Of a DNA stretch of 54,638 bases, positions 39,915 to 54,638 are shown one piece after another. Every line of letters begins with the position of its first letter. The stretch's first letter is position 1. The notes beneath the pieces were generated by a model, which did not search any database, was not told the origin of the DNA, and worked only from the letters and a program-made list of their open reading frames with translations. The stretch spans positions 1-54,638 of the IMG/VR virus record IMGVR_UViG_3300029817_000033; one strand, 5' to 3'. A program made the translations under genes and the position numbers. The DNA comes from a virus. Taxonomy: Duplodnaviria; Caudoviricetes.

Positions 39915-40168
39915 CGGCCTCCCTCCTTGATCCAGGTGTCAACGACGAAGCCGCCGCACTTCCGCGCTGCGGCCTCGGCGCTGGCGAGGTTGTCGCTCCG
40001 GCGCTCGACCCAGCCGCCCGAGCGGCTCACCGCGAGGTAGCGGCGCATGGAGGTCGTCCGGAGGATGCGGGCCGGGTCAAGCAGCCCGCCCGGGTAGTTG
40101 GGCAGCCGGAAGGTCACGACTCGCGTCGTCACCGTCCGGCGCACTTCGAGGGCTTGGATCGTGGTCAC
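39911..40168 (-). CDS. Hypothetical protein
   Basis: GTGA coupling. Confidence 0.55.
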   Translation of the reverse strand: MTTIQALEVRRTVTTRVVTFRLPNYPGGLLDPARILRTTSMRRYLAVSRSGGWVERRSDNLASAEAAARKCGGFVVDTWIKEGGR

Positions 40169-40392
40169 TGGACGGCCCTCGCTCCCTCAGCCGTGAGGCG
40201 GTAGTAGACGCCCTGGCCGGTGCTGTAGCCGTTGCCGTAGACCCGTCGGACCAGGCCGAGCCGGACGAGCGCCCCCGCCGTCCGGGTGACTCCGTTGACC
40301 GGAGCGCCCAGCTCCCGAGCCAGGTGCTTCGGAGAGACCAGCCCTTTCGCCTCAGCGATGACGGCGAGGGCCCTCTTCATCTGGGCGGTCAT
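40165..40392 (-). CDS. Winged-helix (MarR-like) small protein
   Basis: SPKHLARELG....V......LVRLGLV.R...YRLTAEG. Confidence 0.7.
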   Translation of the reverse strand: MTAQMKRALAVIAEAKGLVSPKHLARELGAPVNGVTRTAGALVRLGLVRRVYGNGYSTGQGVYYRLTAEGARAVQ

Positions 40393-40694
40393 CACTTCCA
40401 CCCGAGAGCGCGAGCGGCGGCGCCGGGCAGGTAGCCGATCTGCTCGCCCTCGGCGATGTAGACGACAGGAGGCTCGTCGATGAGATCGGGCAGCTCGGGG
40501 CGCTTCTCATCGCAGCCCTCCTCGTCGTGCTCGTCCCAGTCGATCCCGCATTCCGAGCAAGAGGTCTGCTCGCCAGCGGAGTCGGCGACGGTCTCGATCG
40601 AGTACTCGAAGGGCCACGAGGGCTGGTGCGCGAGGCGAACCTCGGCGTCCTCGGGGAAGTCTTCGAGCAGTTCCAGAAGCTCGCCGACGGTCAT
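40392..40694 (-). CDS. Hypothetical protein with Cys-containing insert
   Basis: MTVGELLELLED...VRLAHQPSWPFEY; CSEC..H..C. Confidence 0.7.
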   Translation of the reverse strand: MTVGELLELLEDFPEDAEVRLAHQPSWPFEYSIETVADSAGEQTSCSECGIDWDEHDEEGCDEKRPELPDLIDEPPVVYIAEGEQIGYLPGAAARALGWK

Positions 40695-40758
40695 CGGAGG
40701 GCTCCCCAGTGGGGCCAGTTAACAGCGGACATTGTCGCTCTCCTTCCAAGAGTCAGAG

Positions 40759-40914
40759 TCACTGGGCGTCCTTCGCTGCCCAGTAGGCATCCCAGGTAGC
40801 TTGCCAGCTCTCGCCGATGGCATCGGCGACGTTCTCGACAGCGTCGTTCGTGCTCAGCCCGTACTCGACGGTCTGACGCTCGACTTCCTCGATGAGGCTC
40901 CTGCTGTCGATCAC
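40759..40914 (-). CDS. 51-aa probable leaderless protein
   Basis: GTG 7 nt after TAACCT; MIDSRSLIEEVERQ...WDAYWAAKDAQ (manual translation). Confidence 0.55.
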   Translation of the reverse strand: MIDSRSLIEEVERQTVEYGLSTNDAVENVADAIGESWQATWDAYWAAKDAQ

Positions 40915-40916
40915 GC

Positions 40917-40959
40917 CGCCAAGGTTAGCAGATGCCGTCGAGAAAGTCTAGACGGCGGG
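40917..40959 (-). promoter_or_regulatory. 43-bp repeat copy B (promoter/operator)
   Basis: Identical to 38580-38622. Confidence 0.8.
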
Positions 40960-41295
40960 AGCGGCGTCCTCCCTGGTCACGACCCTGGGCGTGCCTCTGC
41001 CGTCGACGACGGCGATGAGGTCGGTGGCGATCGCCAGAGCGTCGACGTCGCCACAGGTGAAGACGTCGATGTAGGCACGAGCGAACTCCGGCCAGGTGTG
41101 GATCGAGGCGTGCGACTCGGCGAGGATGGCGAGCACCGTCACGCCCTGGGGCTTGAACTGGTGCGAGAGCGCCCGGATGACGTGAGCGCCGTGCTCCTCG
41201 CAGACCTCCGGCAGCTGAGCCAGCAGCCAGCACTCGTCGTCGAGCAGTTCGACATCGGCCTCGGTGACGTCGACGACAACGTGGCGAAGGGTCAC
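40948..41295 (-). CDS. speD: S-adenosylmethionine decarboxylase proenzyme
   Basis: HQFKPQGVT...LAESHASIHTWPE...IDVFTCG; E-S autocleavage site of pyruvoyl enzymes. Confidence 0.92.
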   Translation of the reverse strand: MTLRHVVVDVTEADVELLDDECWLLAQLPEVCEEHGAHVIRALSHQFKPQGVTVLAILAESHASIHTWPEFARAYIDVFTCGDVDALAIATDLIAVVDGRGTPRVVTREDAAPAV

Positions 41296-42260
41296 GGCCG
41301 GAAGACGAGTAGGTACTCGTGGATGCGAGGGGCGACCCGCGAGCGGTTCTTCTGGACGGCGAAGAGGCGGTTGATCCCGGTGAGGATGCCGTCGGTGACC
41401 CAGATGTCGTGCAGCGAGTAGCCAGCCTCCCGCATCAGGTCGATCGTATCCGCGTGGTAGGGGACGAGCTTGCCGTCCCGGTGCCAGTCGCCGACGTTGA
41501 TGACGAGGAAGGCGCCGTCCTTGAACTTCGGGTGCCAGGCTCGGGCGACCTCGGTCATGCCCTCGATGAACTCCTCGTAGGTCTTGCCGGTGCCGAGCTG
41601 CTCCGGCTCCGGCCCGTAGAACTCGATGTCCCAGTAGGGGGGCGAGTAGAAGGAGAAGTCGCCGATCCCGTCGGGCACCCAGTCGGCATTGCGCGAGTCC
41701 TGGCAGCGGACCTCGACGTGCAGCTCGGACGGGACCGCCAGCTTCTCCAGCACGTTGTTCGTGTAGGCGACGTACTCTTCGCAGCAGTCAGAGCCCCAGT
41801 AGTGGAGCCCCCGCACGACGGCGACCTGCATCTGGATGCCCTGGGCCGAGAAGGGATCGAGGTAGACCTGGCCGGGCTCGGCGTAGTACTTGATGGCGAA
41901 GTCCACCAGCTCGGCGGGCATGAAGCTCACCGAGCGCCGGTCCTTCTGCGACATCAGACCGCCGAGTATCCCCGTGAGCCCGCGCTCGCGGCGCCGCTTG
42001 GCCTTGGCTGCGGCCTCGGGAGACTTGGCCGACTCCTCCCAGAGCCGACTCGCCTTGTTGGGCATCGATCCACCCGGCCGCTCGGCGAGCAGGTTGTACA
42101 TCGAGCGCGAGAGCTGGCCGCGCGAGAGCCGGAGGATCGAGACCGGGATGAAGCCGAAGCGCTGGAGCATCTCGCGACGCTCGATCTGGCCCTTGGCGAC
42201 CGCCTCGGTGAGCTCCTCGTCGGCCTTGGCCGACAGGTCTGGCTTCTCGGCGCCGGTCAT
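41292..42260 (-). CDS. Amino-methyltransferase-like protein with atypical motif I
   Basis: YLDPFSAQG (motif I) precedes FYSPPY (motif IV); C-terminal HEYLLVF. Confidence 0.85.
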   Translation of the reverse strand: MTGAEKPDLSAKADEELTEAVAKGQIERREMLQRFGFIPVSILRLSRGQLSRSMYNLLAERPGGSMPNKASRLWEESAKSPEAAAKAKRRRERGLTGILGGLMSQKDRRSVSFMPAELVDFAIKYYAEPGQVYLDPFSAQGIQMQVAVVRGLHYWGSDCCEEYVAYTNNVLEKLAVPSELHVEVRCQDSRNADWVPDGIGDFSFYSPPYWDIEFYGPEPEQLGTGKTYEEFIEGMTEVARAWHPKFKDGAFLVINVGDWHRDGKLVPYHADTIDLMREAGYSLHDIWVTDGILTGINRLFAVQKNRSRVAPRIHEYLLVFRP

Positions 42261-42892
42261 AGCCCAAGCCACTTTCTCAGCACGGAGTCCAGCATCTCGC
42301 CCTTCTCTCTCTTGCCCTCGTAGACGGCCTTGAAGCTCTCGAAGACGGCCACCGAGACCCGGCCCTGGTACTCGCCGAAGGTGAACGGCAGATCCTCGCT
42401 CGGCACCGGCTGGCTGCCGGGCAGCGGCGGCTCGTTCTCTCGCATCGCTAGTTCGTTGAGCAGGCGCTCCAGGTCGCCGGAGTCGAAGCCGGTGCCCTCC
42501 AACCCGCGCGTCTCCTCCAGATCGAGCAGCACCCGAGCCAGCGTGTCGTCCTTCCAGAGCCCCTCCCCGACACGGTTGAGCGCCAGCGCCATCGCGTCGG
42601 CGTGAGCGTCGTCCCTCGACTCGACGCCCACCTGGACGGGCACGAGCCAACGGCCATCGTCGTCCAGCTCGACGTTCTCGGGTGGGGCGGCTCCGCTGTC
42701 TCGGAGCGCCAGCAGCGTCTCGATCCGGCCATGTCCGGCCAGCAGGCGCCCCGTCCGGTCGTCTCGCACGATCGCCTGGACGTAGCCGAACTGCTCGAAG
42801 CTCACGGCCGTCAGCTCGTTGTCGTGGTCCTTGGCGTTCACGAGCGCCAGCTCGACGTCCTCTAGAGGCAGGTACTCGATCGCGAGCGCCAT
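42257..42892 (-). CDS. ParB/Srx-like domain protein
   Basis: NAKDH..S..FG...LLAGHGR...LALNR...W...TGF. Confidence 0.85.
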   Translation of the reverse strand: MALAIEYLPLEDVELALVNAKDHDNELTAVSFEQFGYVQAIVRDDRTGRLLAGHGRIETLLALRDSGAAPPENVELDDDGRWLVPVQVGVESRDDAHADAMALALNRVGEGLWKDDTLARVLLDLEETRGLEGTGFDSGDLERLLNELAMRENEPPLPGSQPVPSEDLPFTFGEYQGRVSVAVFESFKAVYEGKREKGEMLDSVLRKWLGL

Positions 42893-43104
42893 CAGCCCAC
42901 CCTCTCCTTCTTGAGGTCGAAGAAGACCGTCATCCCATCGACTCGCGAGGCTCGGCCCAGCTCGGCCTTCGATGAGTCTCCGGCAGCGATCCGCTCCCGC
43001 CAGAGCGAGCGCCGGAGGGCGAGGATGTCGCGCTCGATCGCTCTCGTCTCGTCGAGGGTGTCGGCCAGCCGAGCGAGCTTGGCGAGCGCCTCGGCCTTCT
43101 CCAT
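42892..43104 (-). CDS. Small HTH-like protein
   Basis: SKAELGRASRV; TGATG coupling. Confidence 0.55.
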   Translation of the reverse strand: MEKAEALAKLARLADTLDETRAIERDILALRRSLWRERIAAGDSSKAELGRASRVDGMTVFFDLKKERVG

Positions 43105-43581
43105 CTACTTCTCGCCTGCTCCTTCGTCATCGCGCACGCCCGGCCGGATCTCCCGGACCTTGTTCTTGGCGTCGTCGACGCGCTGGTCAAGCACGCCCTC
43201 CGGGTCGGGGAGCGTGAGCTGCCCTGTCTTCTTGAACTCGCGCTGATGGGCGACGCGCTCGGCCATCGCGTGCACGACCGGGCCGACGAGGTCCTCGTCG
43301 ATGAACGTCCCGGCGACCGCCTCGAAGTTCTGGACGAACTCGTAGCCGATGGCCTTGCCGTCGCCGTCCCGGACGATGACGTAGTTCTCGCCCTTCTTGA
43401 CCAGCTTGCCGACGACGAAGACCGCCTTGTCGGCAGGGACGTCTCGGGGCTCGATCTCGGCGACCTCGGTGAGCCGGTCGCTCAGCTTCGCCTCGACGAT
43501 CTTCCGGCCCATGATCGGCTTCCGCTTGTAGGTCTCGACGGGCGGGGCGGCCTCCGTCTCGTCGGGCTGGCTCCGTGCCAT
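43105..43581 (-). CDS. Hypothetical protein
   Basis: GAAGGGAG RBS; upstream conserved motif. Confidence 0.65.
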   Translation of the reverse strand: MARSQPDETEAAPPVETYKRKPIMGRKIVEAKLSDRLTEVAEIEPRDVPADKAVFVVGKLVKKGENYVIVRDGDGKAIGYEFVQNFEAVAGTFIDEDLVGPVVHAMAERVAHQREFKKTGQLTLPDPEGVLDQRVDDAKNKVREIRPGVRDDEGAGEK

Positions 43582-43612
43582 GTGGTGCTCCCTTCGCTAG
43601 TGGACTTTGACT

Positions 43613-44044
43613 CTATCGCTTCGTGGTCTTGCCTGTCGGGTTCTTCTGCGCCCAGTCGAGTAGCGCTGCGCTCCAGCCGTAGCGCTGGGGGGCGTCGAGC
43701 GGCCGGGCGATCCAGTTGGCGATCATCTGCCAGTCGTCCGTCGGCTGCAAGAGCCAGCAGCGGTTCGTGGGGCACGCTCCGGCGAAGAAGTCGAGCACGA
43801 TCACCTGAGCGGCTGAGATGGCGGTGTGGGGGCCTTTGACCTCGATCCAGAGCGTGCAGCCGTGCCCGACGGCCATGATGTCCGGCAGCCCCTTGAGCGT
43901 CGTCGACGTGAGCCAGCGGCCGTCGCTGGTCTTCATGCGGAAGACGTAGTTCACGAGGTAGCCGAACTTCTTGAGGCCGGGGATCAGCACCTCCTTCTGG
44001 AAGGTGGACTCCCCGACCTGCGAGCGCAGCTCGAACAGACTCAT
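43613..44044 (-). CDS. VRR-NUC-like PD-(D/E)xK nuclease
   Basis: E..FQ, GLPDI, WIEVK and S..Q motifs. Confidence 0.85.
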   Translation of the reverse strand: MSLFELRSQVGESTFQKEVLIPGLKKFGYLVNYVFRMKTSDGRWLTSTTLKGLPDIMAVGHGCTLWIEVKGPHTAISAAQVIVLDFFAGACPTNRCWLLQPTDDWQMIANWIARPLDAPQRYGWSAALLDWAQKNPTGKTTKR

Positions 44045-44280
44045 GGCGTCGGCTTCACCCCTCTCGTGTCGAAGCCCTCGCCGAGCACGAAGTGCTGGCA
44101 GGGGCAGAGGTCGCAACGTGCGAAGCATGAGTAGTGGCGCCACCGGGCGTGCGTACAGGTGCACCGAGGGCTCGGCCACGGCGGCGCCGTCATCTTGTGG
44201 GGGACGGGTGGCTGCCGAGCTGGCCGGTCCCGCCAGGGACTCCCGACGGGAGGGGCCGAGCTGCGGCCCGGCTTCGTCAT
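44041..44280 (-). CDS. Small Cys/His zinc-binding protein
   Basis: CTCTH....H...CDLCPCQHF; ATGA coupling. Confidence 0.55.
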   Translation of the reverse strand: MTKPGRSSAPPVGSPWRDRPARQPPVPHKMTAPPWPSPRCTCTHARWRHYSCFARCDLCPCQHFVLGEGFDTRGVKPTP

Positions 44281-45296
44281 GCCGGGTACTCGTCCCAGAG
44301 CTTGCCGTCGAGATGGCGCCCCGCCGCTCTCTTGCCACAGCGATGGAGCCGGACGAGGGACCTCCACTCTCCGGTCTCCAGTAGCCGGGCTCGCTGCTCG
44401 TCCTCGGCCCAGGGGTCGGCGGTCGTCGTACCGTCGTGAGCGAGGTAAGTCGCTCGGCCGTCGTTGACGATCGAGCCCCATTCGCCCCATTGCTTGAACA
44501 GGAACGGCACGGAGCGGCCGTCGCAGTCGCACTCGGGAGGCTCCCAGGGCCCGGCCCAGTCGTCCCGGCCGTCGAGCCAGAGCGAGAGCGAGCACCAGTC
44601 GGCGTGGGTGCCCTTCGCACAGAGCCAGCGCATCTCGCGAGCCCAGTCGGGGTGCATCGGCCGGGCCTTCGGTCCCGACTCGCCACCGACGATCACCCAG
44701 TCGATCCCTCGGAGATCGAGCGCCTGGTAGACCGAACCGAGCAGCGGCTCGATCGAGAGGAACCGCACGGCGGCCGGGGTCTCCAGCAGATGCCCGGCCC
44801 GGAACTGGTACGGCTTGCTCTCGATCGAGACGCCCAGCCAGACGTTCGCGAGCGGCCAGTCAAAGTCTCCGGCAGCAGCGCCCCGGACGTCGTCGACGAG
44901 TCGGATGAACTCCCGATCGTGCAGTAGCCGGGCCATCCGTTGCGGACGCTTCGTGAGCACCTGGAAGGTGTGTTGCCTGGCTCGCTCCATCGTGGCGAAG
45001 ACGGCCGCGATGAACTCGGCGGGGACGTCGGGGTGGAACAGGTCGCTCATCGAGTCGACGAAGATGCGCCGGGGCTTCGCCCAGTGAAGCGGGTCTTCGA
45101 GGCGCTCGCGCAACAGCCGGACCTCCCCGGTGAAGACCCCGTCGACGGCGAGCCCGGCGTAGGTCGGGAACTGCCGGAGCCGCCCCGACGCCTCTCGTGC
45201 CGCGTAGCAGTGCTCGCAGCCCGGCGAGACCTCTTCGCACCCGACGGTCGGGTTCCAGGTGGCGTCAGTCCACTCGATCTTGCTTTCGCTGCTCAC
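44277..45296 (-). CDS. DUF5131 / phage Gp37-Gp68 family protein (radical-SAM-like)
   Basis: IEWTDATWNP..GC..VSPGC.HCYA, SMSDLFH, LTKRP, WVIVGGESG and FKQWG motifs. Confidence 0.92.
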   Translation of the reverse strand: MSSESKIEWTDATWNPTVGCEEVSPGCEHCYAAREASGRLRQFPTYAGLAVDGVFTGEVRLLRERLEDPLHWAKPRRIFVDSMSDLFHPDVPAEFIAAVFATMERARQHTFQVLTKRPQRMARLLHDREFIRLVDDVRGAAAGDFDWPLANVWLGVSIESKPYQFRAGHLLETPAAVRFLSIEPLLGSVYQALDLRGIDWVIVGGESGPKARPMHPDWAREMRWLCAKGTHADWCSLSLWLDGRDDWAGPWEPPECDCDGRSVPFLFKQWGEWGSIVNDGRATYLAHDGTTTADPWAEDEQRARLLETGEWRSLVRLHRCGKRAAGRHLDGKLWDEYPA

Positions 45297-46635
45297 GTTG
45301 CGCCTCCCTTCGGCGACGGTGCTCCAGCGCTCGGGTCTCCACGAAGGCGAACGTCGTCGGCGTGTGCTTCGTGAAGTGCTGGATGGCATAGAGAGCGGTC
45401 AGCCCGACATCGGCCAACTCGGTCAGCAGGTCGTCCATGTCGCCGTACTCGCCCTTACGGGGGTTCTGCCCGGTGATGCCGATGAGGGCGTCGATCGCCT
45501 CGCCCGCCTCCTCGACGACCTTGGAGACTCGTGCCCAGTCCTGGGCGAGCGGCTGCTCCTTGTACCGCTCGGAGACGAAGCCGTCGAGGTCGGCGTCCAT
45601 CCACTCGACGCAAGCGACGAGGTTCTCGTAGAAGTTCCCCATCAGTCGGGGAGCTTCATGGTGGATCGCCGTGACGTGCTCCTCGGAGCACCCGGCGTCG
45701 CGGCAGAGCGCCGCGTAGTTGAGGATGGCGTCGGCTGCGAGCTTGTCTTGCGCTCGGAGCACGAAGCAGGGCTCGTCCTCCTCTAGAGGCTTGTGGCCCT
45801 CGCGAACCTCGACGGTGAACTTGGCGTCGTGCATGGCTCCTCCTTGTTGGGTTGGTTGGTCGGTCGGTTGATCGTGGTTCGTCGTCGGGGCGAACAGTTG
45901 CAGCTCCTCGCCCCGGTGAGCGATCTCCCGGCAGTAGCCAGCCGAGAGTTCGAGCCCGACGACGCCGCGACCGAGACGCCGGGCTTCATAGATCGTCGTG
46001 CCGGAGCCGACGAAGGGATCGAGGACAACGTCACCGGGCCAGGTCGCGAGCCAGAGGCAGCGCCGGACTAGCTCGGCGGGGAAGGGAGCCGGGTGGTTGG
46101 CGAGCCTCTTCGCCGTGGCGAAGCTCCAGATGGACTTGGTGATCTCCAGGAAGGCATCGGTTGGGCAGTCGTTCGGTCCCGTCCGGCCCCGAGCGAACGG
46201 CGGCCGGAAGAACCAGAGCACCACCTCGTGACGGCCTCGGACGTTCGGTGCGTTCGGTGAGAGCCAGCTCCCCCACGAGCACGGGGCGTCCTTGCCGAAC
46301 TGCTCCCAGACGATGAGCATGCGGTAGTCGAGCCCCGCCGCAGCGAGCGCCTCGCGCCAGACGAGGTCGGGCGCCCAGCGGGACGAGCCTCGTCCTCCGG
46401 GGTCGCTCTGGGCATCGGTAGGCACGTTGACGAAGCAGCGGCCACCAGGCACGAGCACGCGCTCGAACTCGATCGCCCAGTCCTCGACTCGGGCCTGGTA
46501 GACGTCGGGTGGGCAGTAGTCGTCCACGCCGTCGTAGTCCATCCCCAGGTTGTAGGGCGGGGATGTCACAATGCAGTCGACCGACTCCGATCGGATCGGG
46601 AGCCGAGCTGCGTCGGCCTGGACGACGTCGCTCAA
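45265..46635 (-). CDS. N4C/N6A DNA methyltransferase fused in frame to a small domain and a MazG-like pyrophosphatase
   Basis: TSPPYN, HPAPFP, LDPFVGSGTT; then DEPCFVLRAQD; then EEAGE...ELADV; no intervening stop. Confidence 0.85.
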   Translation of the reverse strand: MSDVVQADAARLPIRSESVDCIVTSPPYNLGMDYDGVDDYCPPDVYQARVEDWAIEFERVLVPGGRCFVNVPTDAQSDPGGRGSSRWAPDLVWREALAAAGLDYRMLIVWEQFGKDAPCSWGSWLSPNAPNVRGRHEVVLWFFRPPFARGRTGPNDCPTDAFLEITKSIWSFATAKRLANHPAPFPAELVRRCLWLATWPGDVVLDPFVGSGTTIYEARRLGRGVVGLELSAGYCREIAHRGEELQLFAPTTNHDQPTDQPTQQGGAMHDAKFTVEVREGHKPLEEDEPCFVLRAQDKLAADAILNYAALCRDAGCSEEHVTAIHHEAPRLMGNFYENLVACVEWMDADLDGFVSERYKEQPLAQDWARVSKVVEEAGEAIDALIGITGQNPRKGEYGDMDDLLTELADVGLTALYAIQHFTKHTPTTFAFVETRALEHRRRREAQREQRKQDRVD

Positions 46636-47090
46636 GGAGCCCACTCCCAGAGCCCTTGCTTGCCTCTCGCCGGGACCGGCTCGGGGAGCCTTGTGATCTC
46701 GCCGAGCAGCCAGGCGTAGCGCCCCGGCGTGAAGTCGCCGTAGCCGGGTTGGGGGTCGTCGATGGAGAAGCAGAAGCCCTCGGTCGGGACGACATCGAGC
46801 AGCTCGCACGTCGCGAGCACGGAGCCGAAGGGTGGCGTGATGTAGCCCTGCTGGTAGCCCTCGCCAGCAGCACACTCGTGCCACAGCTCGTAGCCGTCAC
46901 AGAGCCCGTAGACCTCGGCCAAAGCCTCCCAGGCAACGTCGGAGCCCGGGAAGGCCCAGGCAGCTCCCATCACGGAGGCGTGGATCGCGAGAGGACCCCG
47001 GTAGCTCGTCTTCCACGACCGCGTCTCGATCGTCTTCACGCCCTCGGCGACGAGCGACGCCCAGGGCTGCCAGAGCGTGAGCGCCTTCAT
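46632..47090 (-). CDS. ASCH-domain protein
   Basis: KALTLWQPWASLVAEGVKTIETRSW...LAIHA...GKQGLW. Confidence 0.92.
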   Translation of the reverse strand: MKALTLWQPWASLVAEGVKTIETRSWKTSYRGPLAIHASVMGAAWAFPGSDVAWEALAEVYGLCDGYELWHECAAGEGYQQGYITPPFGSVLATCELLDVVPTEGFCFSIDDPQPGYGDFTPGRYAWLLGEITRLPEPVPARGKQGLWEWAP

Positions 47091-47350
47091 GGACGCCGCC
47101 GGCCGCCGATCCGGGCCACGTTGATCCTCGCTCCGACCTCGTGCTCCAGCTCTCGGTCGTAGCGACTGCGCTTCCACCCTCGGTAGAGCAGCCGGGTGCA
47201 CTCGGCGGCGCCGAGCATGGCCAGGCAGGCGACCGCCCAGACGAAGCCGAACGAGCCCGGCCCGTGGGCATGTCGGCCGATCTCGTAGCCCCCGCAGATG
47301 GCGACCGCCCAGATGAGCCCGGTCCCGATGACGAGCTTGGTTCGCTTCAT
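47087..47350 (-). CDS. Two-helix membrane protein
   Basis: Two hydrophobic segments; ATGA coupling. Confidence 0.65.
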   Translation of the reverse strand: MKRTKLVIGTGLIWAVAICGGYEIGRHAHGPGSFGFVWAVACLAMLGAAECTRLLYRGWKRSRYDRELEHEVGARINVARIGGRRRP

Positions 47351-47532
47351 GGCTTCTCCTCTCGAATGATGAGCCTGGTCAGCTCGCGGCCAGGCAGCAG
47401 CAGGGACTCGTCGATCGTGAAGGGTGGGGGCGGGACACGCCGGAGCTGCTCGACTTCGAGCTGCTCGACGAGCGGGTAGCGCTCGCTCTCCAGCCGGGCG
47501 AGAAGCACCGCTCTTTCCTCATCGGGGCTCAT
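47347..47532 (-). CDS. Hypothetical protein
   Basis: GGAAGGAGG RBS. Confidence 0.55.
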   Translation of the reverse strand: MSPDEERAVLLARLESERYPLVEQLEVEQLRRVPPPPFTIDESLLLPGRELTRLIIREEKP

Positions 47533-47950
47533 CGCCCTCCTTCCAGGTGCTAGGGGACTTTAGCATCCAACTCTGGACAGGCACGGCTTCTGGGTCTTGC
47601 CAGCTCGACAGGATGACGCCGAGCTTCTTGGCGTCGGCGACGTTCGCGTGCGCCCAGCCGTGGCAGTTGCACTCCGACCAGGCGTTGCCGAGCAGGAGCA
47701 GGTTGCTCAAGTCATTCGAATGCGGGTCGTGGGGGTCTCGGCGCTTGCGATGGTGCCGCTCCCAGGTCTTCGGGTGGAGCCGCCCGCCACAGAGTTCACA
47801 GCAACCACCCGAGCGCCGGACCAGCTCCGGCGTGATGAGGTCCAGCTCCCGCTCGAAGTCTCGATGACGCTGGCTCTCCTTGAAGGCCCTCTGCTGCCTC
47901 GCGAACCCCCGGCGCCTGAGCGGCGAGCGCCGGAGCGGCGAGCCCTTCAT
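47519..47950 (-). CDS. HNH endonuclease
   Basis: CELC...HHR...SNL...CNCH...H. Confidence 0.85.
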   Translation of the reverse strand: MKGSPLRRSPLRRRGFARQQRAFKESQRHRDFERELDLITPELVRRSGGCCELCGGRLHPKTWERHHRKRRDPHDPHSNDLSNLLLLGNAWSECNCHGWAHANVADAKKLGVILSSWQDPEAVPVQSWMLKSPSTWKEGDEPR

Positions 47951-48171
47951 GTCGCGTGCGCCTCGTCATAGGGGCAGCCGCAGAAGCGGCGCGGGTTGGC
48001 CTTCTTGAAGGCGGCCTGCTCCCCGATGTAGTCGATGACATCTCCGTGGGGGTCCTGGTGCCCAGGGCCCGGCTTGCCCTGACGGGTCTCTCTGATGAGC
48101 TGCTGCCCTCGCTCGGCTCTCCAGATCCAGATGTCTTCGATCTCGACTTCGACGGGCTTCGTCTCGGTCAT
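47947..48171 (-). CDS. Hypothetical protein
   Basis: ATGA coupling at both ends. Confidence 0.55.
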   Translation of the reverse strand: MTETKPVEVEIEDIWIWRAERGQQLIRETRQGKPGPGHQDPHGDVIDYIGEQAAFKKANPRRFCGCPYDEAHAT

Positions 48172-48968
48172 CCTGTCTCCTCTCGTCTCGGGATCAACGC
48201 CCGCAGCTCGGCGGGCATCGGAGCCGCTGGCTCGTCGCTCGGCGGCTCGATCGGTCGGTCATAGGGGCGTCGCTCTCGCTGTGTCTGCATGGCGGTCGCC
48301 ACCGGGGCGATCACCTGTCGGTTCTTCACGAGCGACTGGGGGGTGACGCTGAGCCCGGGCCAGGTTCGGCGATGAGCGTCGCCGAGCGCGCGCACCGCCT
48401 CCGGTGTGAGCCCGATGTCATTGAACTCCTTCATGGCTGCGGCGATGCGCCCGGCCTCCGAGCGAGCGAAGGGTTCGACCATCCCACAGGCGGCTGCGAT
48501 GGCGTCGAACATGGCATTCCGGGGGCGCCCTGTCTTCGGCGGCTCTGCCGACGGGGAGTTCTCTCTACGTTCACTAGTGTTGGTTAATACGAGAGAACCG
48601 GTCGTTGCGACCTCAGGCTCCGGCTCGTTGCGACCTCTGAGGTCGCAAGGTGCTACCTCTGGCTCCGGCTCGTTGCGACCTCTGAGGTCGCAAGGTGCTA
48701 CCTCTGGCATCAGGAACCGGTAGCGCGCCGCCTGCCGCTTCGTGGCCTCGGCGATCAGCTCCAGATACCCGTCGTCGAGCATCCGACGAACGGCTCGCCG
48801 AACGGAGTCCTCGCTCGATCGGCACTTGGCGGCGAGGCGACTCTGCGTCATCCAGAACTCGTAGCCGTGCATGTCGTCAACCGAGTCGGCGATCGCCAGA
48901 TGGACAGCGAACGTGCGGTCGGTGTAGGGCGAGTGATCGAACACCCAGCCGGTCGTCTTGCCACTCAT
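48168..48968 (-). CDS. Replication initiator-like protein (N-terminal winged HTH)
   Basis: V.LAIAD...W..Q.RLA..C...SV.RA....G.L; central repeats; follows SSB. Confidence 0.8.
   Translation of the reverse strand: MSGKTTGWVFDHSPYTDRTFAVHLAIADSVDDMHGYEFWMTQSRLAAKCRSSEDSVRRAVRRMLDDGYLELIAEATKRQAARYRFLMPEVAPCDLRGRNEPEPEVAPCDLRGRNEPEPEVATTGSLVLTNTSERRENSPSAEPPKTGRPRNAMFDAIAAACGMVEPFARSEAGRIAAAMKEFNDIGLTPEAVRALGDAHRRTWPGLSVTPQSLVKNRQVIAPVATAMQTQRERRPYDRPIEPPSDEPAAPMPAELRALIPRREETG
48603..48708. repeat. Iteron-like 45-bp tandem repeat with internal palindrome; putative origin
   Basis: Units at 48616-48660 and 48661-48705, each containing ttgcgacctc-t-gaggtcgcaa; AT-richer tract at about 48560-48598. 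Confidence 0.75.
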
Positions 48969-49103
48969 GACGGACGACTCTCCGGCCGGGCTAGTCTGGC
49001 GACTGCCATGCGACCTCCTTCACAGGTCGATGAGCGGCCCTGGAGCCCCCCACAACTCCAGGGCCGTCTCGCGTCTCAGGGGTGTGACGCTAGCGCGCCT
49101 CGC

Positions 49104-49517
49104 CTAGAAGGGCTCTTCGTCGTCGTAGCCGTGAGGGGCCTCGCGGGGTGGCGGGCCGCCTGAGCGCTGGATCTTCGTCACGACGGCGGTCGCCCAGCGA
49201 AGATCCGGCCCGACCGAGTCGGCGACGACCTCGATCTTCGAGCGCTTGTCGCCGTCGGCCGTCTCCCAGGAGCGCTGCTCCAGGCGACCGACGACGATCA
49301 CCCGAGCGCCTCGCGAGAGCGACTCGCAGACGTTCTCACCCAGCTCTCGCCAGCAGACGACATCGAGGAACGAGGTCTCCTCTTTCCACTCGTTGCCCTC
49401 CCTGTAGCGCCGGTTGACGGCCAGGCCGAAGCTGGCCACGCCCTGCCCGGAGGCGGTGAACCGCAGCTCCGGGTCTCTGGTGATGTTCCCCACCAGGGTC
49501 ACAGAGTTCGATGGCAT
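49104..49517 (-). CDS. ssb: Single-stranded DNA-binding protein
   Basis: VTLVGNITRDPELRFT..G, GRLEQRSWE and C-terminal DDEEPF. Confidence 0.97.
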   Translation of the reverse strand: MPSNSVTLVGNITRDPELRFTASGQGVASFGLAVNRRYREGNEWKEETSFLDVVCWRELGENVCESLSRGARVIVVGRLEQRSWETADGDKRSKIEVVADSVGPDLRWATAVVTKIQRSGGPPPREAPHGYDDEEPF

Positions 49518-50836
49518 CACCAAGCCTCCTCGTCACTAGCGACCGGCTGCCCGGCCTCGTCCAGCGGCCGAGAGTCGGGCTCTCCCTCCAGTTCATTCGC
49601 TGCGTGCTCGGCGAGAGCCTCGTCTCGCCCCGCTGCGAGCGCTGCTGCCTCGGCATCGGAGAACTCGTGCTCGTCCTCTCCCTCGTCCACCGGGGGCGCC
49701 GGAGACCGGAAGCTTGCCGACGATGCGGCGGCGATCTTGTCGGTCAGCTCGGCGCCGCCTGCCGAGATGGGGGTGACTCCGGCGACCGCCAGCTTCTCGG
49801 CCTCCTCGGCTGCCATCGCTGCCGCGAGGCGGCGCTTGCGCTCGTCGGCCGTCCCGTCCTTGGAGAGCTTCCGCCTCCCCAGCTCTCCCGAGATGCCCGC
49901 GGTGCTGAGGATGGCGACCTCACGAGTCGCTCGATCGAGAACGGCTTGCGCCGCCTCCGGGCTGCCAGCGATCCGTTCGAGGTCGCGCGCCGACGGGGCG
50001 CGGGCCGTCTTCGGAGCCTCGGGCTCTGCTGCCGGGGGCGCGCTGGGCTCTGGAGCTGCGGCGGGCGGGGACTGCCCTGCGAGCTGTCCCGCAACCTCGT
50101 GGAGAGCCTCGCCTAGGCTCGCCACAGCCTCTCCAGGGGGCGGGGGCGGCTCAGATGGCGCGCTTGGGGCTTCTGGAGCCGCCACGGCTGGCTGAGCGGC
50201 CGGAGACGGGGGTTCTGCGGACTGCTCGACGCTCGCCTTCGCCCGGGCGAACAGCGCCTCGGCGATGTCGAGTGGCAGCGGCCAGCGTCGCTCGATCTCT
50301 TGCGACTTGAGCCACTTCCGAATGTCGGCGAGAGCCTCACCGTCGAGCTGCGCCCAGAGGGCCACGACTCGGTCGTGCGTCTGGACGAAGTCCTCGGCTC
50401 CGGCGTAGCCGAACTGCTGCCACTGTTCGATGTTGGAGCGCTCGGCCTCTCGGTTGCGGACGTCCTCGGCGCTGGCGATCGACTTCGACTCGCTCGCGAG
50501 AGCGGCCACGATCGCCCGCCCCCACGCGCTCGTCTCGGCGTTCTGTAGCTCGCTGTCCTTCGTGTAGGGCGTCGTGCCGGGGAACTTCTCCCAGGCGAGC
50601 CCGATCCCTGGGTGCTCATCTCGGGGCGAGCGGTAGGCAGCGGCGGCGTAGACGAGGTACGTCCTCGTGACCTCGACGCTGGAGCCGTCGTCCTTCTCGA
50701 CGATGACCTGGAGCCGCTCGAACCAGTAGGGCCGGGTCTTGTCGACCGGCTCCAGGTTGCCCTCCGGGTGCTTCTCCTTGAAGTCCTTGATCCTCTCGGG
50801 GACTTGCTTGTAGTTCGGGTCCAGTTCAAAGGCCAT
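49517..50836 (-). CDS. Rad52/Sak-like single-strand annealing protein with SAP-like C-terminal motif
   Basis: Y..V.ERI..F and NAETSAWGRA motifs; lies between Gam-like gene and SSB. Confidence 0.65.
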   Translation of the reverse strand: MAFELDPNYKQVPERIKDFKEKHPEGNLEPVDKTRPYWFERLQVIVEKDDGSSVEVTRTYLVYAAAAYRSPRDEHPGIGLAWEKFPGTTPYTKDSELQNAETSAWGRAIVAALASESKSIASAEDVRNREAERSNIEQWQQFGYAGAEDFVQTHDRVVALWAQLDGEALADIRKWLKSQEIERRWPLPLDIAEALFARAKASVEQSAEPPSPAAQPAVAAPEAPSAPSEPPPPPGEAVASLGEALHEVAGQLAGQSPPAAAPEPSAPPAAEPEAPKTARAPSARDLERIAGSPEAAQAVLDRATREVAILSTAGISGELGRRKLSKDGTADERKRRLAAAMAAEEAEKLAVAGVTPISAGGAELTDKIAAASSASFRSPAPPVDEGEDEHEFSDAEAAALAAGRDEALAEHAANELEGEPDSRPLDEAGQPVASDEEAW

Positions 50837-51038
50837 TCGTCTCCTCCTCTATCGGGTCGAACTCGGTGCAGCCACAGTCGTCGCAACCAAGCGGCGGCTC
50901 GGCGTGCTGGTACAGGATGCCTCCGCAGCGGCACTTCTTCGCCAGCTCCGGTGAGAGCTGAGAGAAGGCGTAGCGGGGGTGCTTCACGGCCACCAGGAGC
51001 GGCCTCTCGGTCACGCTCGGGTGGTCTGCTCGGGTCAT
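50826..51038 (-). CDS. Small Cys/His zinc-binding protein
   Basis: CRC.....H......CDDCGCTEF. Confidence 0.6.
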   Translation of the reverse strand: MTRADHPSVTERPLLVAVKHPRYAFSQLSPELAKKCRCGGILYQHAEPPLGCDDCGCTEFDPIEEETNGL

Positions 51039-51640
51039 GACTGGCGCTCGGTCGGGACTGCCTTGAAGCTGTCCTCCTTCGGCACGACCACGTAGACGCC
51101 GGGGATGACCTCACCCTCGTGGGCGAGGCTGAACTCCAACAGCTCGCCGAAGGGTCGGCTCTCGCCAGCTCTGAGCTTCTTGAGGTCGTCCTTCTTCGGC
51201 TCTGGCTCCGGGGGCTCCGGCCAGCGGAGCAGCTCCGGCGCGTTGGCGCGCGCCCAGGCCCGGAAGCTGTCCGGGTCTCGGACGTCGACGGACTCGCGGG
51301 GCTTCGTCAGCTTGAGCACTCCGCTCGGGAGCTGGAGCGTCTTGGGGCCGCCGCGCGCCACGCGGAAGCGCATGAAGACTTCGAGCCCTCGCTCGATCCA
51401 GGATGCCTCGCGCGCCGCCTTCGCCTTGCGGCGGTCGCACCAGTCGTCGATCTCGGCGATGCGCTCCTTGCGGAGCTTCTCGATCCGGGCCTCCTCGGCA
51501 GCGATGGTCGCCCGACGGTAGAGCAGCCGGTCGGCGAAGACATCGTCTTCGATCGCCAGCTCGCCGCTGTCGGGAACGTCGGCGAGGTCGTCGTCCATCC
51601 AGGCGTCCAGATACGCCGAGAGGGCGGGGGATGGTTCCAT
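51035..51640 (-). CDS. Mu Gam-like host-nuclease inhibitor
   Basis: Coiled coil followed by KTLQLPSGVLKLTK...IPGV; first gene of the recombination module. Confidence 0.7.
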   Translation of the reverse strand: MEPSPALSAYLDAWMDDDLADVPDSGELAIEDDVFADRLLYRRATIAAEEARIEKLRKERIAEIDDWCDRRKAKAAREASWIERGLEVFMRFRVARGGPKTLQLPSGVLKLTKPRESVDVRDPDSFRAWARANAPELLRWPEPPEPEPKKDDLKKLRAGESRPFGELLEFSLAHEGEVIPGVYVVVPKEDSFKAVPTERQS

Positions 51641-51678
51641 GCTTTCTCCTTCCAAGAGACGGGCTCTGAGCCCGGTTG

Positions 51679-51694
51679 CTATAGCGCACTATAG
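51679..51694 (-). promoter_or_regulatory. Putative early promoter -10 (TATAGT) inside a CTATAG-N4-CTATAG element
   Basis: Rare AT-rich motif upstream of the first early gene. Confidence 0.5.
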
Positions 51695-51714
51695 ACCACC
51701 CCTGCGCGCTGGCG

Positions 51715-51824
51715 CGAGAAAGGGCCGGGCTCCGGCCGGTACGCCTTGAGGAAGCCTTCGAGTGCCTCCCGTCTCCGACCTTCCGCCCGACCCCTGCTCG
51801 GCAAGTTCTTGGAAGGATATGCGC
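51715..51824 (-). ncRNA. Candidate small RNA with anti-RBS seed
   Basis: TAACAT box at 51830-51835; TCCTTCCAAGA near the 5' end; 3' hairpin GGCCGG-AGC-CCGGCC followed by CTTTCT. Confidence 0.4.
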
Positions 51825-51849
51825 TCTCGATGTTAGCGCGGGAGCCCGC

Positions 51850-52185
51850 TCAGTGAGCGGCGTGCGCTCCCTTCGGCGAGCCGATCGCCGTGAGCGCGCG
51901 GTTGACCGCGCGGCCCGCGCTCGTCGTCTTGAAGACGATCGGGTAGGCGATCGTCGCCCAGGTGAAGATGAGCCCGGCGAGCCCGGCGACATTCGGGGCG
52001 TTGAAGAGGCTCGGCTGGTCGATCGCCACGGCGGCGCAAGCCACGGCGGCCGACACGACCATGCAGACGCCCTGGGCGACCTGGCTCGGCCAGTTCTCGT
52101 GCTTGATGAGGCTCGTCACCGGAGTCGCCACGATGCCACCGATGACGACGATCAGCGTGATCGTCGCCGCTGAGAGGTCGTTCAC
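51850..52185 (-). CDS. Holin (putative)
   Basis: About 111 aa, three hydrophobic segments, basic tail; GTGA coupling; last gene of the lysis cassette. Confidence 0.7.
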   Translation of the reverse strand: MNDLSAATITLIVVIGGIVATPVTSLIKHENWPSQVAQGVCMVVSAAVACAAVAIDQPSLFNAPNVAGLAGLIFTWATIAYPIVFKTTSAGRAVNRALTAIGSPKGAHAAH

Positions 52186-52514
52186 GATCCCTCCTTTGGA
52201 GGTAGTTCCGGGATGTCCGGGTGGTGCAGGATGATGTGGCCGAGCATCCGGCGCAGCTCCTCCCGGTCCTCGCGAGCACTCGTCATGTGCTCGTGCAGGG
52301 GCTTGAGCTTGTCGTCCACGAAGCGGTGCGCCGCCCTGCCGATGGCTCGCCGGAGCGGCGGCCAGAGTGTCGCCCCGACCACGGCGCCGAAGGCGATGGC
52401 GATGATCTGCTCGCTGGCGTTGGTGAACCAGTTGCCGGGCGTGAACCCCCATGCCAGGAAGTGCCGAAGGTGGTCCAGGTCGTAGACCACGTTGGCGTGG
52501 ATGAAGGCGATCAC
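52182..52514 (-). CDS. Single-pass membrane protein of the lysis cassette
   Basis: Hydrophobic helix followed by coiled coil; GTGA coupling. Confidence 0.6.
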   Translation of the reverse strand: MIAFIHANVVYDLDHLRHFLAWGFTPGNWFTNASEQIIAIAFGAVVGATLWPPLRRAIGRAAHRFVDDKLKPLHEHMTSAREDREELRRMLGHIILHHPDIPELPPKEGS

Positions 52515-52951
52515 GAGGGCACCGATCCCACAACCAGCAACGTTAGACCTACGGCGCTCAGCAGCACGGCATACGCCTTGAGGAAGCCTCGGAGCCCCCG
52601 GCGCTTCTCCCAGCCGATCCACCCGGCGACGGCCAGGCACGCCCCTCCGCTCACGAGCAGCGCCGTTGTCCGAGCGAACAGAAAGAACGGCAGCACAGGG
52701 ACGAAGCTCCCCAGGAACGTGCTCACCCCCATCGCCACAGCGTTGCGGAGCTTCTCGTGCCAGAGCCCGTCCTGCGCCTCGTAGATGCCCCAGCTCATGC
52801 TCACCGTCGCTGCGATCGCCCCGCCGAGCCCTCCCGAGGCGACCATCTGGCGCGAGGCGTGGTGGACGAGCAGGCCGAAGAGGAACCCGACGACCGAGAC
52901 GACGCCGTCGAAGGCGCCGAAGATGGCGTCCTCGCGCTCGGCGGTGTCCAC
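52511..52951 (-). CDS. Compact VIT1/CCC1-like membrane protein
   Basis: DAIFGAFDGVVS, GLGGAIAATVSMSWGIY and S.FLGSFVPVLPF motifs. Confidence 0.75.
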   Translation of the reverse strand: MDTAEREDAIFGAFDGVVSVVGFLFGLLVHHASRQMVASGGLGGAIAATVSMSWGIYEAQDGLWHEKLRNAVAMGVSTFLGSFVPVLPFFLFARTTALLVSGGACLAVAGWIGWEKRRGLRGFLKAYAVLLSAVGLTLLVVGSVPS

Positions 52952-52953
52952 GG

Positions 52954-53394
52954 CTACTCTCCGGCGAGCCGCAGTTCCAGTTGGCGCTCCCGCTCTCGAA
53001 CGAGGGCGATCTCCCGGTCCATCCGTTCCGTCGTCGCCCGGGACCACCCGAGATGTTCGGCGAAGTCCTGCTGGAGCGTCGTGACGATCCCGTTAGTGCT
53101 CTTGGCGAATTCTTCGGTGCGCTTCGCCGTGTCCCCCACGGCGTCGCTCTCCCCGCCGTTGACTCTGGTCCTCAGCATCAACAGATCGAGCTTCTGGCTG
53201 TCGGTGAGTCCCTGCTCGGCCTTCTCCTCTTCGACCCGAGTGACGGCCTTGTCGATCCTGTAGGACTTGACGGCTCGGCGAGCGCGCCAGCGGTCAGCGG
53301 CGACGGCGATGCTCCCGATACCGAGAGTCGCCGAGACGGTCCAGATGACGGTGGCGATGTCGACGCCGGGCGCAGGGGTGACCGCGGCGAGCAC
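52954..53394 (-). CDS. Membrane-anchored coiled-coil protein of the lysis cassette
   Basis: N-terminal hydrophobic helix; NGGES motif; follows endolysin. Confidence 0.6.
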   Translation of the reverse strand: MLAAVTPAPGVDIATVIWTVSATLGIGSIAVAADRWRARRAVKSYRIDKAVTRVEEEKAEQGLTDSQKLDLLMLRTRVNGGESDAVGDTAKRTEEFAKSTNGIVTTLQQDFAEHLGWSRATTERMDREIALVRERERQLELRLAGE

Positions 53395-53397: not shown

Positions 53398-54638
53398 TCA
53401 CGCTTCCAAAGCGGCCCAGGTGAGGGGACCAACGATCCCGTCGACCTCCAGGCCCTTCGAGTGCTGGAAGTCGACGACGGCCGACTCGGTGTCCTCCCCG
53501 TAGATGCCGTCGACGCCATCGGGGCCGAGCTGCTCGCCGAAGCCGTGCTTGACGAGATCCTCCTGGCAGAGCTTCACGGCCGGGCCTGTCAGGTTCGGCT
53601 CCGTGAGGAACAGCTCCGGCCTGGCTGGAGCTGGCTTGCCGGGAGTCGGCACTCTCGTCGCCTTGAGAGCGATGTCGATGGCTCCCCAGTAGGCGAGCCC
53701 GTTCGTGCTCTCGCGGTCGATGACCGACGAGAACTCCGAGTAGCAGACGCCGGACGCCTCGTCGAAGGCGCTGATCATCATGAGGGCGCCGCCCGGGACG
53801 ACAGGGCCGACACAGACGCCGACGTGGCCGGGTCGCTTCGTGCCGGGGCCGGGAGGCTCGCCCCCGTAGGTGAAGACGAGCATGCCAGCGAGCGGCTCGC
53901 CCTCGTAGATGGTGAACTCGGGGTCGAAGAACTGGTCATGCGAGCCGTGCGCCAGCGGGACGCCGCAGTCCTCGCCGATGTTCTCCGTCAGCCCAGAGCA
54001 GTCGACGCCCTCTCGGGTCGTGCCTCCCCAGACATAGGGGACGCCGAGCCACGAGCGCGCGTCGGCAACGATGCCCTCGCGGACCGCCTTGACGGTGAAC
54101 TTCGCCTCGTCAGGGCTAGCGACGCCCAGCAGCGTCTCGATCTCCTCTTCGACCTTCTCGGCCGCCTCCTCGACGAAGTGCTCGATCTCTTGGACGAGGC
54201 TCGGATCGGGGGTCGGCGCCGGAGGGGCGGGAGAGGGCGTCGGAGCTGGTGCTGGCGGCGTTGGAGCCGGAGGGGTCGGAGCTGGCGCTGGCGGGTTCTC
54301 GGCGACGCCACCGAGGGCCCTGCAGGCCGCCAGCATGGCGTCGAAGTCAGCTCCCGAGCGCTCGGCGTCCTCGCGGGTGGCGATGACCCACGCCTCTTGG
54401 ATCGCATCGCTGTCGAACTCGATGTCGGCCCACTGGAGTCCTCCCCAGGTCACCCCCAGGTCACCCACAGGGTAGCCGTCGATCTCCTTCGTACCGGTGG
54501 CGTCATAGGCGACGATGAGCCAGTCGTGGCCGTCGTTCGGGTCTGGCTGGTCGTCGGCCGTGACGTGCCAGGGGATGCCCTCCTCGAAGTCGTCCTCGGC
54601 GTCGTCGGTGAGCAGCCCGCCCACGAGGATGCCGTGGG
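53398..54638 (-). CDS. Endolysin 3' part: end of papain-like domain, Pro/Ala linker, NlpC/P60, peptidoglycan-binding domain
   Basis: GHDWLIVAYD, PYVWGG....VDCSGL, GHVG and DGIYGEDT..AV..FQ...GL.VDGIVGP.TW motifs. Confidence 0.9.
   Translation of the reverse strand, partial: HGILVGGLLTDDAEDDFEEGIPWHVTADDQPDPNDGHDWLIVAYDATGTKEIDGYPVGDLGVTWGGLQWADIEFDSDAIQEAWVIATREDAERSGADFDAMLAACRALGGVAENPPAPAPTPPAPTPPAPAPTPSPAPPAPTPDPSLVQEIEHFVEEAAEKVEEEIETLLGVASPDEAKFTVKAVREGIVADARSWLGVPYVWGGTTREGVDCSGLTENIGEDCGVPLAHGSHDQFFDPEFTIYEGEPLAGMLVFTYGGEPPGPGTKRPGHVGVCVGPVVPGGALMMISAFDEASGVCYSEFSSVIDRESTNGLAYWGAIDIALKATRVPTPGKPAPARPELFLTEPNLTGPAVKLCQEDLVKHGFGEQLGPDGVDGIYGEDTESAVVDFQHSKGLEVDGIVGPLTWAALEA
54540..54637. 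repeat. Terminal overlap, copy 2
   Basis: Identical to 1-98; joining the ends restores one continuous ORF. Confidence 0.97.

Follow-up and report, generated by a model that had tools for sequence, protein, structure and literature searches.

The closest described counterparts of the element reported here are the start-associated sequences (SAS) of cluster K mycobacteriophages and EF Microbacterium phages, which are asymmetric, nearly invariant blocks of 11 to 13 nt that occupy the position of the ribosome site, 3 to 9 nt before start codons (PMC3203893, PMC7302621, PMC11373665). SAS are restricted to non-structural genes, most of which begin with ATG, and share one orientation; promoter-like repeats termed ESAS often lie just before them (PMC3203893, PMC7302621, PMC11373665). 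In four K1 phages, a single SAS each was found in the opposite orientation and away from a gene start (Pope et al., PMC3203893). For actinophages, SAS have been on record since 2011 with no mechanism, and their function was still called unknown in papers from 2024 and 2025 (PMC11373665, PMC12699233). Here we describe a virus contig of 54,638 bp with ~68% G+C (IMG/VR record IMGVR_UViG_3300029817_000033, analyzed over its whole length and called the window below), in which a motif of this kind precedes six early genes and recurs once in inverted orientation in the 209-nt non-coding gap between a putative holin gene and a Mu Gam-like gene. We tentatively favor the reading, modeled by RNA folding, that the RNA of this gap masks the ribosome site of Gam in cis and perhaps also acts in trans.

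The core of the motif, CTTGGAAGGA, has six exact matches in the window, five on the minus strand (34718, 35904, 38562, 40741, and 51647) and one on the plus strand (51808). With up to one mismatch, eight matches were found against a mean of 1.84 in shuffled sequences, and none of 100 shuffles reached eight; the five exact minus-strand matches compare with 0.029 expected under a second-order Markov model. After each of these five copies, and after a one-mismatch copy at 47538, comes a G and then, 4 to 7 nt on, an ATG. The eighth match, at 14750, lies within the tape-measure gene and has no start codon after it. All six motif genes fall within 34717–51657, among the genes for Gam, the helicase, and the phrog_1362 protein, and all six start with ATG, as compared with 38 of 67 rough gene calls. 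The eight occurrences of GGAAGGAG on the minus strand are preceded by CTT in five cases and by CCT in one, and the conserved block is thus longer than its Shine–Dalgarno (SD) part; to our knowledge, the CTT of the motif is unable to pair with 16S rRNA.

Comparing the motif with the SAS of cluster K and EF phages, it shares with them the position of the ribosome-binding site (RBS), conservation beyond what an SD sequence needs, restriction to early or non-structural genes, the ATG starts, and a single orientation. Likewise, a 43-bp repeat in the window resembles the ESAS promoter repeats of cluster K. However, the motif reads CTTGGAAGGAG, which is not one of the published consensus sequences, and it has only six copies. 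It is therefore of the same kind rather than related by descent and represents a new SAS-like motif, a single copy of which stands inverted at the lysis/early junction. Its different sequence and its presence in an uncultivated phage of peat, wetland, and soil mean that the device is not confined to the cultured clusters, having arisen or spread outside them.

The inverted copy, TCCTTCCAAGA, is located within the gap at 51807–51817 on the minus strand (core match 51808–51817) and is the only inverted copy of the motif; this 11-mer is expected 0.012 times on the minus strand under the second-order Markov model. The motif elements and their complementarity are very unlikely to be due to chance. 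The partner of the inverted copy is the motif of the Gam gene, TCTTGGAAGGAG, which includes the SD sequence; it occupies 51646–51657 of the minus strand and is separated from the Gam ATG by 5 nt. The two are perfect 11-nt complements about 150 nt apart on the transcribed strand, with 51817 pairing with 51647 and so on through 51807 with 51657. In the predicted fold of the 221-nt junction (−102 kcal/mol, z = −2.70, equaled by 3 of 200 shuffles), the outermost helix is this 11-bp pairing. No complement of 8 nt or more of the motif was found near the other motif sites, which singles out Gam.

The initial annotation had raised occlusion of the Gam RBS in cis by a read-through transcript as the second of two options, and this option is the better supported one, as the helix is predicted in every transcript model that holds both copies. 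In partition-function folds, the seed, as the inverted copy is also called here, pairs with the Gam RBS with a mean probability of 0.99 in a transcript from 51822 to position +30 of Gam, leaving GGAAGGAG unpaired at 0.13; the same values were obtained for a natural variant with a 17-nt deletion, and a read-through transcript from 52000 gave 0.97 and 0.10, respectively. In a leader that starts after the TATAGT hexamer at 51693–51688, the seed is absent and GGAAGGAG is unpaired at 0.44. Moreover, the Gam SD sequence is the least accessible among seven GGAAGGAG starts, with an unpaired probability of 0.13 versus 0.32–0.70 for the others (contexts of −200 to +30).

In the mechanism that we propose, the holin–Gam gap would encode a structured non-coding RNA whose 5′ part is the anti-RBS TCCTTCCAAGA (51817–51807). 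In the long transcripts that we infer, produced either by late-operon read-through from the holin gene or as a leader begun near the GCTAACAT box, these 11 nt would pair with UCUUGGAAGGA (51657–51647) and close a compact multi-hairpin domain. Because this pairing would bury the Gam SD sequence, Gam would be translated poorly from the long RNAs, and translation would proceed from a transcript begun inside the domain, for example at the TATAGT box, as it would not contain the anti-RBS. In a genome expressed in one direction, the pairing would thus stop late read-through from making Gam. Since the helix and the shared motif cover the same bases, trans pairing of this segment with the start sites of the other five motif genes would be possible as well, with the segment either on the 3′ end of the late mRNA or released as a short RNA.

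Several points weigh against the cis pairing. The internal TATAGT promoter is a hexamer match only, and the consensus scan of the junction was promoter-negative. The borders of the helix lie within one base of those of the shared motif, which a purely local anti-RBS need not do; this fits recognition or targeting of the motif as a unit at least as well, whether by a trans-acting RNA or by a protein. The long hairpin that lies between the two partners would, if it is an efficient terminator, put them on separate RNAs, and the inverted copy would then belong to the 3′ tail of the late mRNA or to a short RNA. The z-score of −2.70 for the whole junction is modest. In addition, the RNA-library contigs that cover the junction are shallow (depth 2.5–3.9) and unstranded and possibly represent contaminating DNA. 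Lastly, the helix has no covariation support, as no diverged relative with the early region was found in IMG/VR, in the GTDB genomes, or among the metagenome matches listed.

The elements of the gap named by the initial annotation (a TAACAT-type box, the seed, a GC hairpin, and CTTTCT) were all found at the positions given. The GCTAACAT box (51830–51837, minus strand) is a TANNNT-type, −10-like hexamer after GC and lies in the loop of a small GCGCU/AGCGC hairpin. The long GC-rich hairpin occupies 51716–51799 on the minus strand, and its 3′ side ends in CTTTCT (51722–51717); it is a proposed terminator or structural domain. Within it, a GGCCGG/CCGGCC stem (51737–51732 with 51728–51723, minus strand) with the loop AGC is directly followed by CTTTCT. 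A CTATAG-N4-CTATAG repeat at 51679–51694 on the minus strand, made up of two of the three CTATAG copies in the genome, holds the TATAGT hexamer, a candidate internal −10 box and one of two intergenic minus-strand TANNNT hexamers that match TATAAT at five of six positions. Just upstream of the Gam ribosome site, a small hairpin, CGGGCU-CAG-AGCCCG, is located at 51660–51674 on the minus strand. A consensus scan of 51000–52600 returned no promoter-like and no terminator-like sites, and it also missed the GCTAACAT box. A search for perfect GC stems of at least 7 pairs with a T-rich tail gave seven matches, six inside genes and one at a gap/gene edge far from the junction.

Natural variation in the gap affects the long hairpin. 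A 17-nt stretch at 51740–51756, which forms its apical part, is missing in a 99.5% identical twin contig from the metagenome scan (L112, the sole one among the matches listed) and in contigs of two of the four runs compared, X17 (DNA) and X18 (RNA library). The deletion removes the tip of the hairpin and leaves the lower and middle stems intact, and as its length is not a multiple of three, it indicates that the gap is non-coding. An open reading frame (ORF) of 41 codons in the gap (51679–51804) was considered as a coding sequence and rejected, since the common 17-nt deletion breaks its frame. The twin contig differs from the window at two other places as well. About 920 nt are unmatched where the window has 644–1826, which is part of a 415-aa gene after the tail genes, and ~490 extra nt are present near window position 48007; these differences are cassette swaps between otherwise identical phages.

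The stretch 50300–53300 is contained in 20 of the 24 listed sequencing runs, which come from 15 studies of peat, wetland, and soil and include three RNA libraries, and contigs from four of the 24 runs (the three RNA libraries and one DNA run) were compared with it. In the RNA library X18, the contigs 51454–51663 and 51644–51826 together extend from the Gam start across the full gap, inverted copy included. The second of these contigs shows no break at the hairpin or at CTTTCT and bridges this site by 73 and 109 nt. In run X20, a contig at 51807–51953 connects the end of the holin gene with the inverted copy up to its last base and, under the 31-letter rule, does not count as bridging the proposed start. 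Parts of the stretch without RNA-library cover were not taken as evidence. The contigs weakly suggest that both partners occur on the same molecules and that transcripts do not always stop at the proposed 3′ end. RNA-library contigs also lie over the end of Gam and the next gene (50856–51086, in two runs of one study) and over the lysis genes (51999–52517), and the phage may be active in its peat, wetland, and soil habitats.

Relatives that would permit a comparison of the junction were sought in several ways. Phage records gave nothing by blastn or tblastn, and neither Gam alone nor a Gam alignment found anything in IMG/VR or the GTDB genomes. In metagenomes, three Gam homologues were found (P0002, P0003, and P0004, with 69, 64, and 48% identity, respectively). 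A search with the 439-aa neighbor protein gave nothing. The exact pattern of motif plus ATG occurs at 111 loci of IMG/VR, none with several same-strand copies in a high-GC contig, and a scan for the inverted pair gave 0 matches. Among 51 loci of helicase relatives (at most 54% identity), none holds CTTGGAAGGA. The capsid search returned one relative at 75% identity (L177), which is a structural fragment without the early region.

The inverted copy itself has a parallel in cluster K. Just as in the window, the K1 phages Anaya and Adephagia have exactly one opposite-orientation orphan copy of their SAS in a long non-coding gap. Among the 17 SAS matches of Anaya, it alone is inverted; it lies in the 385-bp gap between gp96 and gp97, where the complement falls in the 10-nt loop of a GC-closed hairpin. 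In Adephagia, the inverted SAS has the same sequence and lies between gp92 and gp93, and late transcription appears to begin between genes 92 and 93 (PMC11373665). The Anaya gap corresponds to 39684–40070 of locus L164, and homologous gaps are present in L165 and L169–L176. This gap, which precedes the last genes, is conserved across 182 records of cluster K and comprises a terminator, TAGACT, and a GC-closed hairpin. We aligned the gaps of ten of these records, chosen across the identity range, and found TAGACT invariant about 100 nt upstream in all ten. A near-exact complement of the SAS is present in the C/U-rich loop of four of the ten (Anaya, Adephagia, Shaobing, and Biglebops); the C/U-rich loop has diverged in Ekdilam, Krueger, Tierra, and Bryler, and Scarlett and ShedlockHolmes differ further. 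However, the same SAS consensus was reported across subclusters K1–K3 and K5–K7 in the excerpted part of a 2025 survey (PMC12699233), so the complement is not maintained wherever the motif is. Elsewhere, no inverted copy with up to two mismatches was found in Pixie (12000–61147) or in AnnaSerena (10000–56707). An inverted copy in ZoeJ was considered as a further orphan and rejected, as it is the ordinary SAS of a leftward gene.

The K1 gap is where late transcription reportedly starts, and the gap in the window follows late/lysis genes; the orphan copy of the window stands 150 nt ahead of a gene with the motif, so that cis pairing is possible, whereas in K1 the downstream gene has no SAS. The recurrence of an orphan inverted copy at an early/late boundary in two unrelated lineages is suggestive. 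Yet such a copy is not general or conserved in SAS systems, which counts against a universal anti-SAS RNA. We hold it to be decidedly doubtful that in SAS phages an inverted copy at the late/early boundary puts an anti-SAS segment on late transcripts that pairs with the ribosome sites of all SAS genes, shuts off their translation, and so brings about the early-to-late switch. Two unrelated lineages would fit that proposal, with the copy carried in the 3′ tail of the lysis operon here and in a hairpin loop at the late-start gap of Adephagia in K1. The SAS literature, in the passages searched, holds no proposal of a complementary RNA, and the excerpted 2025 survey has 0 occurrences of "antisense" or "opposite." If true, an anti-SAS switch would supply a function for motifs unexplained since 2011. 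If the inverted copy is only a local anti-RBS for Gam, it would represent an ordinary though tidy case of temporal translational control in a one-direction genome. What is at stake is whether recognition of such motifs takes place on the RNA, through a complementary RNA, or on the DNA, through a protein.

Outside the SAS phages, the proposed cis element is closest to the T4 genes e, soc, 49, and I-TevI, whose SD sequences are sequestered in long transcripts and which are translated from short transcripts begun inside the structure (PMC3014915). As modeled here, the Gam junction would likewise have an upstream segment that pairs with the SD sequence in read-in transcripts, a candidate inner promoter, and a separation of temporal classes. 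However, the timing is reversed relative to the T4 genes, since the gene to be protected against read-through from late genes would be an early one. The helix is also long-range (150 nt), closes several hairpins, and is here predicted only, and the sequestered site is a repeated motif common to five other genes. Among phage antisense and small RNAs that block ribosome sites, which include P22 sar, the c4 RNA of P1 and P7 acts on a downstream icd-ant site, and small RNAs of Gram-positive bacteria have C/U-rich anti-SD seeds. Similar to c4-type RNAs, a short pyrimidine-rich segment of the same strand complements a ribosome site downstream of it and could act after release. In contrast to c4 and sar, Rfam homology is absent here and the targets would be several and dispersed rather than one operon. 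T4 also switches off early mRNAs with proteins, namely RegB, a nuclease that cuts GGAG, and the repressor RegA (PMC3014915). The RegB and RegA regulons are comparable in that a set of early mRNAs is switched off via a common translation-initiation feature. However, no such gene was identified in the window, and these proteins do not explain the inverted copy.

It is rather unlikely that the motif is instead bound as DNA by a regulator, of the phage or of the host, immediately downstream of early promoters, with the inverted copy as a further operator and the RNA complementarity as a by-product. This explanation takes its strength from the surroundings of the direct copies, three of which follow −10-like boxes: GCTAACCT at 38592 and GCTAAAGT at 35934 precede the motif by 13 nt each, and GCTAAAGT at 47564 precedes it by 9 nt. 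The inverted copy begins 12 nt after the GCTAACAT box, and this similarity of 12 nt to 13, 13, and 9 nt indicates a spacing independent of orientation, which also speaks against sequestration of the Gam site as the role of the inverted copy. Moreover, one motif copy is preceded, in the manner of ESAS, by a 43-bp repeat with an inverted repeat around the promoter-like TAGACT-17-TAACCT, and the cluster K authors favor DNA-binding proteins for the ESAS repeats (PMC3203893, PMC11373665). The inverted copy and the Gam motif, two sites 150 bp apart around a candidate promoter, could also loop the DNA. However, two of the six direct copies (40741 and 34718) have no TANNNT box within ~35 nt upstream, and all of the direct copies keep a strict distance of 4 to 7 nt to an ATG and include the SD sequence, which points to a role in RNA. 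In addition, the site has no symmetry, and a candidate for the protein that would bind it was not identified.

All of the direct copies are located on the minus strand. A 415-aa gene (phrog_1362) has its copy at 34717–34727, 5 nt ahead of the ATG; the copy at 35903–35913 lies 4 nt before the ATG of a 119-aa gene and 13 nt after its GCTAAAGT box, and that at 38561–38571 lies 7 nt before the ATG of a 47-aa gene overlapping the helicase start and 13 nt after its GCTAACCT box. The variant copy, CCTGGAAGGAG (47537–47547), has its GCTAAAGT box 9 nt upstream and the ATG of a 61-aa gene 4 nt downstream. The copy at 40740–40750 precedes by 7 nt the ATG of a 13-codon ORF (40688–40729), whose stop overlaps the ATG of a 100-aa gene (40392–40694) as ATGA on the minus strand; the 13-codon ORF looks like a coupled upstream ORF.

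The boxes themselves form families. GCTAACNT occurs four times on the minus strand (51837, 40929, 38592, and 33068) and not on the plus strand, always in gaps, and the GCTAACAT box is one of these four; TAACNT alone (eight on the minus strand, none on the plus strand) shows no enrichment over base composition by arithmetic expectation. The 43-bp repeat is exact and present on the minus strand at 38563–38638 and 40900–40975. It holds TAGACT, 17 nt, and GCTAACCT, with a GCCGTC/GACGGC inverted repeat flanking TAGACT. One copy leads to the motif after 13 nt and the other to the GTG of a 51-aa gene after 7 nt, and this 51-aa gene is probably leaderless. The second family, (G)CTAAAGTCC(A/C)CTAGC, lies just before early gene starts at 47564, 35934, and ~43612 on the minus strand; the motif follows two of these boxes, and a different ribosome site follows the third.

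It is unlikely, too, that the inverted copy has no function, being the ribosome site of a lost divergent gene or a by-product of recombination at a repeated motif. Temperate relatives carry divergent regulatory genes at the lysis/early junction, which would suit a relic, and the plus strand reads CTTGGAAGGAT directly followed by an ATG and then by only five codons. However, the spacing to this ATG is 1 nt rather than the 4 to 7 nt of real sites, and the copy is therefore no ribosome site of recent origin. The parts of Pixie and AnnaSerena that were covered have no inverted copy, and that of ZoeJ is an ordinary SAS; a motif system thus does not need an orphan inverted copy, which is in line with a functionless one here. 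Against coincidence stands the low expected count of the inverted 11-mer, just 0.012. The inverted copy is also intact in the window, the twin contig, and the run contigs, which is weak evidence because all of these are near-identical.

The first option of the initial annotation, a discrete trans-acting RNA of ~105 nt, is improbable. Such an RNA would be transcribed from the GCTAACAT box, extend from ~51822 to ~51716, and silence six early starts together by pairing through its 5′ seed. What stood of this claim are its elements, the complementarity, and an accessible seed. The GCTAACAT box belongs to the four gap-restricted GCTAACNT boxes, two of which lie 7 nt before the GTG of likely leaderless genes, and the seed is predicted to be 0.74 unpaired in the free 107-nt RNA of both natural variants. 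Over the invariant part of the motif, 10 to 11 nt are complemented at all five exact sites, and the match lengths given in the initial annotation hold: an 11-nt complement, with its leading T, at 38562, 40741, and 51647, and 10 nt at the other two. Helix borders that match the motif borders are likewise in its favor. However, nothing shows a discrete transcript, and the RNA-library contig from 51826 to 51644 runs through the proposed 3′ end; its end at 51826 is upstream of the expected start, and it may be DNA. Neither a consensus promoter nor a consensus terminator was found in the gap, no clearly intergenic GC stem of at least 7 pairs with a T-rich tail was found, and the GCTAACAT box would itself lie in a hairpin loop. 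The RNA has no Rfam match. In the cluster K analogue, the exact anti-motif is present in only four of ten aligned phages despite the same motif consensus across the subclusters, as reported in the excerpted survey.

In the pairing check over start regions that had been proposed for this RNA, three motif sites come first of 75 start regions by seed-only duplex energies. However, the energies at motif sites range from −19.2 to −27.0 kcal/mol and overlap with those of starts without the motif, which reach −21.8 kcal/mol, and the site at 35898 ranks 12th. Full-length duplex energies were tried as a target test and discarded, as they are meaningless for GC-rich RNAs; starts without the motif scored best.

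Bases 1–98 of the window recur exactly at 54540–54637, and this end overlap of 98 nt indicates a closed circle or a terminally redundant phage genome of ~54,540 bp. All credible genes are on the minus strand. Their order begins with the endolysin (53398–54624, with NlpC/P60 and PG_binding_1 domains), small membrane proteins, and the 111-aa hydrophobic gene, followed by the 209-nt gap and the Mu Gam-like gene. After Gam come a 439-aa gene, SSB, and the replication genes (a DUF5131 protein, a phrog_6247 protein, the UvrD-like helicase, and phrog_1362), and then the structural genes for terminase, portal, major head protein, tape measure, and tail. This order confirms the junction of late/lysis genes and the first early gene that the initial annotation had taken as its setting. 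The 111-aa gene (51850–52185, minus strand, stop codon at 51852–51850) is the last of the lysis cassette and forms the upstream border of the non-coding junction; its name as a putative holin is based on position and hydrophobic sequence only, and the protein has no Pfam or PHROG match. The Gam-like DNA-end protection gene (51035–51640, minus strand; PF07352, E = 4.7e-8; phrog_2205, E = 3.8e-16) is the first early gene, with its ATG at 51640 and an N terminus that is conserved among homologues. No tRNAs were found in the window. No Rfam family reached its gathering threshold in the window, and a search of 51500–52000 at E values up to 1 gave two chance-level matches (E of at least 0.28).

A few observations lie outside the junction. 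In the lysis cassette, a 178-aa membrane protein (52511–53047, minus strand) matches the family of VIT1, a vacuolar iron transporter (E = 1.6e-12), an unusual finding among the lysis genes of a phage. The UvrD-like helicase (35936–38413, minus strand) has 825 aa, and its residues ~6–760 align to only ~1.4 kb of DNA in IMG/VR relatives; residues 506–529 give a sub-threshold Intein_splicing match (E = 0.0022) that ends in a typical intein C-terminal motif. The helicase probably carries an intein of ~280 aa. In gaps of the structural region, −10-like boxes of the form GAGGTAYGST or near to it occur at 27682, 8909, 23516, and 29998 on the minus strand, and boxes of this type may mark late promoters. 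Lastly, a palindrome, CTAGCGCGCTAG, is located at 33071–33082, just upstream of the GCTAACGT box at 33068. Its core, TAGCGCGCTA, has eight occurrences in a distant helicase relative (L113), and as the core is self-reverse-complementary and both strands were counted, these correspond to about four sites.

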